DNA of 64,000 bases from Chrysomallon squamiferum (Eukaryota; Animalia; Mollusca). The stretch is from contig CM022676.1 in assembly GCA_012295275.1 (NCBI GenBank), positions 15,562,001-15,626,000 on the forward strand, read 5' to 3'. Both the position numbers and the translations under genes were made by a program. The notes beneath the pieces are model-generated. The model had not been told where the DNA came from. It saw only the letters and a program-made list of their open reading frames with translations, and did not search any database. This document shows, one piece after another, positions 49,356 through 51,929 of the stretch; position 1 is the stretch's first letter; every line of letters begins with the position of its first letter.

Positions 49356-51929
49356 TTAATTTTCGTATCTGATTTTTATTACAGTTCTACCATCCTTTGA
49401 CGTAAATGACAGGGTTGGTTTCGGATTATTTCCAGAGCTCTTGTTCCGGACCGTAATTTTCCAGTCACCAATCTTCCCCGTGTTTCCTTGGAGTCCGTTC
49501 TTACCGCTGATTGGCCTGCTACCCTCCACTTTTAGTTTACTGTAGTCACTTGAAGCTGCAGAGTAACCACCTTTAAAATATAAAATAAAACGATAAACAA
49601 AGGAAAAATATTAAGACAAAATCCAAATTTATGTGCATGTCTCTATGTGTGTTTGTTCGTGTATTTAAATATTTGTGTTTGTTAATATCACTTTTAAAAC
49701 CGCAACGAAAAGTTGAAATATATACACTCTAAACTTAAAAAACCGTTTCACCTTAACACTGAAAGAAGTAGACGTGCATCACCTTGTTTAGAGTACTGTA
49801 TTGTCATGCGCCTTCCACTCCATGTTTTCTTTCTGAATTTTAATGTGCGAAGAAGGGCTTTCCAAACATATTTCCTCAAATAACGGAGCCTCTTGCTTCT
49901 AGTAGTTTCATTCTCTACCTGCCTCCTAACAGACCAAAGATCTTAACGTGAAACAAAAAAAAATATATATATATATATATATATATATATATATAATAAT
50001 AATAATAATAAATAAATAAATAAATAAATAAATAAATAAATAAATAAATAATATAATGATAATAATTAATTGATGTTTTGTCTTATTAATAAACTCACAC
50101 ACACAGATAGAGAAAGAGAGAGAGAGAGAGAGAGAGAGAGAGAGAGAGAGAGAGAGAGAGAGAGAGAGAGAGAGAGAGAGAGAGAGAGAGAGAGAGAGAG
50201 AGAAAGAGAGAGAGAGAGAGAGGATTTTGTCAACACCGGATTCCCTTGGGAGCAAAGAGCTACGCCGTTATATACAGAGTGACAGTTTATAAAGATCAAA
50301 ACGACACAAAAAATTGAATATGTTTTATTACAAATGTTACAGTTAAATATCTAGCTGAGATTTGCCAGTGATTACGCGTTGATTTGCCGATAAGTTGACC
50401 TGGTTGAAATGTTCACCATTTTATAGAAAACTTCGTCTTTCTTTTAACCCGCGGCAAAGTCTAAGTGGCATTTATTTATAGATTTATTTGTTTATTATTA
50501 TTATTATTATTATTATTATTATTATTATTATTTCTTTCAAAAAAAAAAATATATATATCACTTGGAAGTTGAAACTATTGACACATTTTGCCTCTATTTT
50601 GTCCAAAGATGACTTGAACACGTTTTGCAGTCGGGCACCGAAATTATATTTAGTAATAAAAGTGCAAGAATAGCTGCTGACATGCTTTGTTTTTGTGTTA
50701 ACAGCAATTGACAATCAACACAGGTATTGATTTTTTTTTTTTTTTTTTTTTTTTTTAGTTTGTGTACAAACTGGATCAACTCAGATGGACTGAAGAGAAT
50801 GACATGGTAAAGATTAGAATTAAGAAACCCAGTACGCAGAGGTGAAAATTTGAGAAAGTAGGCTATCAGTAGTATGAAAGAAACATCAGAATAAAACTTT
50901 TCTTAAATCATTTTATCACTTATGCCATGAATGTGTATAAAATATGTTGTTAAAGTCCCTGTTTTATTAGATACATAACATGTATACATGTAGACATTTA
51001 ATTTTACCTTTGTGACAAATGATTGGTTATGTGTTATTGTCTCATTTTGCTTTGACAAAGTGTCACTTATCTGTCTAGAGATAAATCTTTCTCTGTACAC
51101 AGTGGATTTGTTGGAAAATCTTCTATTAATTTTGTTTTAGAAAGTTCGTTCTCTGATTGCGACCAGTTCAATAAGACAGTGAAAAGTCTACTTCTGACTC
51201 TAAATGAGTGTTTCAACACTAATAATAATTTTGTTCATTTAGCTCAGTATAGTAACTACAAGATGTATGTCATCATTATTTGTTAAGCTTTCAAAGAATG
51301 GCGATCATTTCATACCACATGGTAACCTAATTACGCAGAAACTGCCGTCAGTTTTTTCAGAAGTGATCGTCCTTGCAAAATTGATGACAAACTAAGTATT
51401 ATATAACTTGTCTTTCTTTTTCTTGTTTTCTGGAATTTACACCCGACGTCCGAAGTGTACAATGAAACGATTTGATAATCATAAACTATAGGAAACAGTA
51501 CAGAGAAAAATGCATTACAGATATATAATAACAAAAAAAAAAAACTAAAATGCATATCCGAATTAGGCATTATATTTTCCATGACAGATTAAAGATAGCT
51601 TTTAGGAATTTCGCAAATTATATATGCTGATGATGATAATGATGATGATGGTGATGGTGATGATCATAATGATAATGATGATGTTTTACAGGAGAAGGAA
51701 ATAAAACAAACTCACCCAGTTTCGGCTGGAATATTTTATCTCCTACTTTACTCGGGTGGATGATGTCTCGTTTAGAAAGCGACTTCAGATCAAAGCCGTG
51801 ATTCTGTCCTGACTGACTTCTCTTCGACTCGACAGTCTCAGCATCTGAGTCAGACACCTGCACAGACTGGGCCAACGCTAATAACAAACAAAGAAACACT
51901 AAGAGAAACTGAAAAGCGACTCCCTTCAT
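49356..51929 (-). CDS. Secreted precursor (240-277 aa): signal peptide, propeptide with KR/RxKR sites, cationic C-terminal domain resembling bacterial polymorphic-toxin tips
   Basis: Exons 51716-51929 (MKGVAFQFLLVFLCLLLALAQ..), 51335-51485, [51008-51074 and 50417-50460, less certain], 49783-49925, 49356-49570 (TAA); phases 1,2,0,2,1 join without stops. Confidence 0.72.

Follow-up and report, generated by a model that had tools for sequence, protein, structure and literature searches.

A three-exon gene of Chrysomallon squamiferum belongs to a seemingly undescribed mollusc family of secreted precursors with a basic domain behind a predicted furin-type site

The stretch analyzed here, which we refer to as the window, comprises 64,000 nucleotides (nt) of Chrysomallon squamiferum DNA (assembly GCA_012295275.1, contig CM022676.1, positions 15,562,001 to 15,626,000), and all coordinates below count from its first letter. 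Its minus strand carries a gene of three exons, the spliced coding sequence of which (588 nt) translates into 195 amino acids (aa) without an internal stop. Exon 1 (51716 to 51929) begins with the ATG at 51929 and ends in phase 1 in front of a GT donor at 51715-51714. Exon 2 (49783 to 49941), 159 nt long and in phase 1 at both ends, is framed by an AG acceptor at 49943-49942 and a GT donor at 49782-49781, and exon 3 (49356 to 49570) encodes the last 71 residues of the C-terminal domain, with the end IKIRYEN and a TAA stop codon at 49358-49356. Every exon junction is in phase 1. Both introns, intron 1 (49942 to 51715; 1774 nt) and intron 2 (49571 to 49782; 212 nt), run from GT to AG with pyrimidine-rich acceptors, and their G+C contents of 0.30 and 0.27, respectively, compare with 0.40 to 0.45 in the exons. 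On the same strand, an AATAAA motif at 49306 to 49311, which starts 45 nt past the stop codon, is by its position a putative poly(A) signal.

The precursor opens with a predicted signal peptide, formed by the hydrophobic residues 1 to 20 (51929-51870), for which we judged the cut by eye from the -3/-1 rule and placed it behind A-L-A and before Q21. The remainder of exon 1 encodes a pro-region with two KR sites. Exon 2 contributes a D-L-W-S motif, the tetrapeptide RSKR (49889 to 49900, minus strand) and the first 35 residues of the mature domain, which comprise a basic helix and the first two strands. By its motif and its conservation in homologues, RSKR is a predicted proprotein-convertase (furin-type) site. 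The mature domain behind it extends over 106 residues to the stop and by direct count holds 25 K+R and 5 D+E, giving a net charge of +20, with no Cys and no His. Cleavage of the signal peptide, a convertase cut at RSKR and release of the basic domain are thus predicted from the sequence. An initial annotation of this locus had described an intron-containing gene for a secreted precursor with a basic C-terminal domain behind a furin-type R-x-K-R, and the exons, the splice contigs and the family layout presented below bear out this description. RSKR indeed lies at the position given there, within exon 2, and translation of the exons reads identically to the 106-aa domain sequence that had been quoted.

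Evidence for splicing came from run X10, a small contig set filed under another organism label, which is complementary DNA (cDNA)-like and not recorded as RNA. Its depth was confined to bins overlapping the three exons and was zero in bins lying wholly within introns, with coverage by contigs of 51713-51808 in exon 1 and of 49780-49828 only in exon 2. A 96-nt contig joins 49780 to 49567, which corresponds to the canonical exon 2-exon 3 junction 49783|49570 shifted by a GTG found on both sides, and in X10 contig record 11 intron 2 has been removed by splicing. A further contig of 143 nt joins 51713 to 49567, equivalent to 51716|49570, and thereby connects exon 1 directly to exon 3. Exon 2 is a cassette exon, skipped in one cDNA-like contig. 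Because it is 159 nt long and phase-symmetric, its skipping keeps the frame and gives a product of 142 aa, which is devoid of RSKR, of the basic helix and of the two strands, that is, of the domain's first 35 residues. Of the proposed linkage between the exons, the exon 2-exon 3 and exon 1-exon 3 joins were thus recovered in X10, whereas the exon 1-exon 2 junction (51716|49941) is absent from the reads and is predicted from homology. It is supported by the conserved D-[IL]-W-[ST] motif in front of the cleavage site, which forms across this junction, and by the spliced product, which aligns without a break, as one domain, to the profile of the family. We conclude that this is a native, spliced and transcribed mollusc gene.

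Intron 1 contains microsatellites, an interspersed repeat and open frames with the motifs RKRK (51423-51412) and RVKR (50451-50440). The latter two had been listed, RVKR tentatively, as propeptide sites in the initial annotation, but being intronic they lie outside the product; we rejected these open frames as exons, since no X10 contig lies over them and the alignment of the family runs collinearly in their absence. A 107-nt stretch of intron 1 (51079-51185) recurs inverted about 32 kb away at 18445-18551 with 82% identity and is probably an interspersed repeat.

Upstream of the gene, a partial duplicate of 583 nt (54320 to 54902, minus strand; 86% identity) repeats exon 1 together with its 5' flank and ∼200 nt from the start of intron 1. 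In this copy exon 1 (54685-54473) has retained its ATG, frame and GT donor. Comparison of the two copies of exon 1 reveals 12 differing nt, which amount to 9 non-synonymous and 3 synonymous codon changes, with 11 of the 12 differences in codons 1-39 and one in codons 40-71. No copy of exon 2 or exon 3 was found downstream of the duplicate, and four phase-1 candidates for a downstream exon in 52150-54472 resembled neither of them. The duplicate may serve as an alternative first exon, or it may be what is left of a tandem duplication. At 51731, the base in the exon 1-exon 3 contig matches the upstream copy of exon 1; since this base is also present in the DNA runs, it cannot be told which copy gave rise to this contig.

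Relatives of the gene were found in molluscs. When the 71 residues encoded by exon 3 were compared by phmmer with 1.84 billion representative sequences, 11 matches were obtained at E≤1e-3 (best, 3e-11), nine of which carry the domain at the C-terminus (eight precursors of 131-320 aa and one 52-aa fragment). The other matches, P0009 and P0011, are repeat proteins with short stretches in 4-5 copies and were left out of the alignments. Exon 2 aligns to the proteins matched by exon 3. A search with the domain profile yielded 11 proteins of 243-320 aa, nine of them new, and the seven named ones were all gastropod. The named members come from ten gastropod species (Gigantopelta aegis, Haliotis rufescens, H. 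cracherodii and species of Batillaria, Pomacea, Littorina, Nucella, Babylonia, Bradybaena and Lymnaea) and from one bivalve, Sinanodonta woodiana; examples are LOC124138934-36 of H. rufescens, LOC121386606 of G. aegis, C0Q70_18501 of Pomacea canaliculata and ACJMK2_009283/86/87 of S. woodiana. Members in Haliotis, Sinanodonta and Bradybaena carry consecutive locus tags, which points to tandem paralogues.

We then built a hidden Markov model (HMM) of 226 positions from 18 homologues, leaving out the window sequence, and compared it with 1144 targets, namely 1142 open reading frames of the window (≥30 aa) and two spliced products. The spliced product matched as one domain over HMM positions 43-225 of 226 with 127 bits (E 5.9e-38). 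Each exon also scored singly (exon 1, E 0.0059; exon 2, E 2.4e-4; exon 3, 76.9 bits), and the only scoring open reading frames among all targets were those of the three exons. Exon pieces found no family match in Pfam, NCBIfam, PADLOC or PHROGs and no match among PDB sequences by phmmer, and a word-indexed protein search with exon 3 gave no match among longer or near-length proteins. All named members are annotated as 'uncharacterized' or 'hypothetical', and no paper was found for peptide strings of the window or its homologues, homologue locus tags or accessions, in a search of article text that left supplementary tables outside, so that a listing in an expression table is possible. The family thus appears to be a mollusc-wide, seemingly undescribed family of secreted precursors.

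Its members share a common order of signal peptide, mostly acidic pro-region, RxKR and a basic domain of ∼108 aa ending in RKFRY. Of 17 homologues, 16 have an R-x-[KR]-R site at a distance of 105-138 residues from the C-terminus, and the 17th has L-H-K-R instead. Among the 16 with the site, the mature part is Cys-free with a net charge of +13 to +25 in 15, and the pro-region has a net charge of -11 to -35 in 12. Six residues of the domain are invariant (G, G, G, R, P and T) and 15 near-invariant (T, Y, G, A, T, T, V, S, L, R, S, R, K, R and Y), and one His is conserved in most, not all, members. Exon 3 of the window keeps G..TG..G, TVR, PT and the C-terminal K-I-R-Y; the window copy nevertheless is the most divergent of the family, with ≤43% identity to other members and a branch length of 1.67 against a median of 0.23. 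It carries W, S, T and I in place of near-invariant H, E, R and R, respectively, and its pro-region is short. In the tree, heterobranchs and caenogastropods roughly form groups of their own, as expected under vertical descent. In one member, Bradybaena similaris BsWGS_10262 (P0020), the pro-region carries an insert of ∼80 residues with basic peptides bounded by KR, KKR and RQKR, and some members may thus yield additional processed peptides.

An AlphaFold model of the Gigantopelta member, computed with the 18-sequence alignment, reached a mean predicted local distance difference test (pLDDT) score of 74.4, and from residue 51 onward it contains blocks that score 81-92. Its elements follow the order helix, two strands, helix, five strands, of which one helix and the five strands correspond to exon 3. 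The best Foldseek matches of this model in the PDB were teneurins (E 0.023-0.05, probability up to 1.00), with none below E 0.001, and the nearest structural match, with a borderline score, is the teneurin ABD domain. Teneurin was absent from the 45 rows returned at E≤10 when the family alignment profile was searched against PDB sequences. Designed TPR/PPR proteins topped that search, but these rows sum tiny repeat matches to one helix-turn-helix stretch and do not indicate homology. A single-sequence AlphaFold model of exon 3 alone (pLDDT 56.9; no Foldseek match at E≤0.001) was set aside as too weak.

The window contains several further groups of exons around the gene. Two similar SRCR-domain exons (3543-3941 and 10298-10720, minus strand; Pfam E about 1e-11), each adjoining a long microsatellite, resemble tandem paralogues of a gene of the scavenger-receptor type. 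The fn3 exons, near-identical at a distance of ∼34 kb, and an Ig exon (28106-28669, 61937-62311 and 62496-62909, minus strand) look like parts of duplicated Ig/fn3 receptor genes that flank the region. Three paralogous Cys-bearing exons (31353-31778, 34079-34516 and 40771-41211, minus strand) have the stretch '...NLTSDIKFVHKTQTDNTTVCDCVQR.DTC.C.STQSY.C...' in common; they have no Pfam match and probably encode a lineage-specific extracellular domain repeated in tandem genes. Finally, an open frame of 225 aa at 39057-39734 (minus strand) consists of Ser/Thr-rich tandem repeats of 11 residues (SNRVTVTSDMS / SEATVTSDTS) and looks like the exon of a mucin-like stalk.

As to function, we propose with a probability of roughly 45%, and by analogy with known precursors, that the gene encodes a secreted, cationic host-defence protein released by a convertase. 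After removal of the signal peptide, a furin-type convertase would cut behind RSKR; this would set free the Cys-free alpha/beta domain of 106 aa and net charge +20, which would act outside the cell by binding anionic microbial surfaces. We favor this proposal because most members combine an anionic pro-piece with a cationic mature part, because the genes appear to form tandem paralogues and because the window copy has diverged rapidly. Masking of a cationic mature part by an anionic pro-piece is typical of defensin-type precursors, and the longest branch, that of the window copy, fits a fast-evolving effector. Several observations nevertheless weigh against a host-defence role. With 9 K+R and 7 D+E in exon 1, the pro-region of the window copy itself is not acidic. 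The N-terminal helix of the mature part, encoded by exon 2, is not significantly amphipathic, its hydrophobic moment (muH) of 0.38 being reached by 19% of shuffles. Conservation across two mollusc classes is stronger than usual for antimicrobial peptides, and an enzyme or a receptor ligand would be just as plausible for a folded, well-conserved domain of 108 aa in which a set of polar residues (T, Y, D, R, S, T, E, R, K, R and Y) is near-invariant. If the proposal holds, gastropods and bivalves, among them farmed abalone and invasive apple snails, possess an unnoticed family of convertase-processed, folded, Cys-free secreted proteins with an isoelectric point of ∼12, which would be new candidates for innate immune effectors in molluscs, whose known repertoire consists mainly of disulphide-rich peptides.

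Part of the same evidence could also be read in terms of a prohormone-like gene, in which convertases would cut at dibasic sites to yield bioactive peptides, or the 106-aa domain would itself be a hormone or pheromone, with splicing of exon 2 changing the set of products. The two KR sites of exon 1 and the RSKR of exon 2 would suit such a gene, as would the conserved pro-region motif across the family, the skipping of exon 2 in one cDNA-like contig, the near-identity of the second half of exon 1 between the two copies (1 difference in codons 40-71) and the Bradybaena member with its extra dibasic-flanked peptides in the pro-region. In the window, moreover, a peptide of 24 residues lies between RSKR and G-R-R, an amidation-type signal. 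This G-R-R is, however, unconserved, most members having S-G-S-R-V-T there, and it is located inside the confidently modelled fold, with strands over the equivalent position, so that a cut at this place would break up the conserved domain. Nothing equivalent to the exon 1 peptides is present in the pro-regions of other members, and no neuropeptide family was matched, the Calc_CGRP_IAPP row (E 0.076) covering the signal peptide only. We regard a prohormone as unlikely.

A different question is where the domain came from. The initial annotation saw in it a horizontally acquired C-terminal toxin tip of the CdiA/RHS/MafB type, which in a fuller form would be the anciently acquired tip of a bacterial polymorphic toxin (a BECR-type RNase, e.g., Ntox47/CdiA-CT), since domesticated, secreted and activated by a convertase. 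Leads in this direction came from a language-model atlas, in which exon 3 lies nearest to small bacterial proteins (0.92; a lead only) and the nearest named clusters are bacterial, mostly Ntox47, Ntox37, Ntox17, Ntox21, Ntox30 and Tox-HNH-EHHH (0.78-0.83; likewise leads only). None of the corresponding families, Ntox47 (PF15540), Ntox21 (PF15526), Ntox17 (PF15524), Ntox37 (PF15535), Ntox30 (PF15532) and Tox-HNH-EHHH (PF15657), was recovered by a Pfam-A hmmscan of the 3 exon pieces at E≤10 and of nine full homologues at E≤1; the full homologues gave nothing at that threshold, and for 18 members NCBIfam returned no more than single-member noise. Pattern scans with exon 3 or a seven-member alignment over 185,579 bacterial and archaeal species genomes plus metagenome and viral contigs detected no confirmed relative, and tblastn of the exon pieces against plasmids found no match, both within a reach of fairly close relatives only. 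There were no recognisably bacterial proteins among the phmmer and profile matches. The exons of the gene have the same G+C content as the neighboring SRCR, fn3 and Ig exons (0.39-0.42), and the setting is not that of CdiA, RHS or MafB: the gene has two spliceosomal introns, its precursor measures 195 aa and opens with a signal peptide of eukaryotic type, and its neighbors are SRCR, fn3 and Ig exons. In addition, most of Ntox21, Ntox17, Ntox37, Ntox30 and Ntox47 need conserved histidines as listed in Table 2 of PMC3482391, and the 106-aa domain of the window has none. With only mollusc relatives and no bacterial relative detected, the claim of horizontal transfer is not supported by present evidence, and we consider a domesticated toxin tip quite improbable. 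The borderline structural match suggests another, doubtful origin, as a free-standing relative of the teneurin ABD, either copied from the animal's own teneurin gene or descended from a shared bacterial YD-toxin C-terminal cassette; such a domain would bind a small or anionic ligand and be non-catalytic. Very unlikely, in our estimate, is the combined scenario of an ancient free-standing C-terminal cassette of a bacterial YD/RHS-type toxin, the stock of the teneurin ABD, that would now be a furin-released cationic antimicrobial effector acting on RNA or another anionic target. The borderline likeness to ABD provides a concrete connection, open to testing, between a secreted protein on its own and the end of teneurins that derives from a toxin.

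Compared with known systems, the family differs from the bacterial BECR-fold tips (Ntox47/CdiA-CT; PDB 5T86), to which no HMM match was obtained, in that the mollusc gene has neither an N-terminal RHS, CdiA or MafB delivery part nor an immunity gene, but has eukaryotic introns and a signal peptide, and its window copy has no His. The teneurin ABD (PDB 6FB3, residues about 2592-2711), with its borderline structural score, shows no detected sequence similarity to the mollusc domain; it sits in a membrane receptor of 2800 aa and is followed by Tox-GHH, whereas the mollusc domain is free-standing, follows a convertase site and is much more basic. The dae genes are domesticated amidase effectors, bacterial type VI toxins transferred to animals. 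They set a precedent for what the initial annotation had proposed, the reuse of a bacterial antagonism toxin as a secreted immune effector of animals, but dae proteins have clear bacterial homologues, and none was found for the mollusc family. Alpha-defensins and the arminins of Hydra are cationic host-defence precursors with an anionic pro-piece. Their mature peptides of 20-45 residues are disulphide-rich or unstructured, in contrast to the folded, Cys-free mature part of 106-110 residues in molluscs. They nevertheless share with the mollusc family the order of signal peptide, acidic pro-region, basic processing site and cationic mature part, and their genes likewise tend to occur as tandem, fast-diverging copies.
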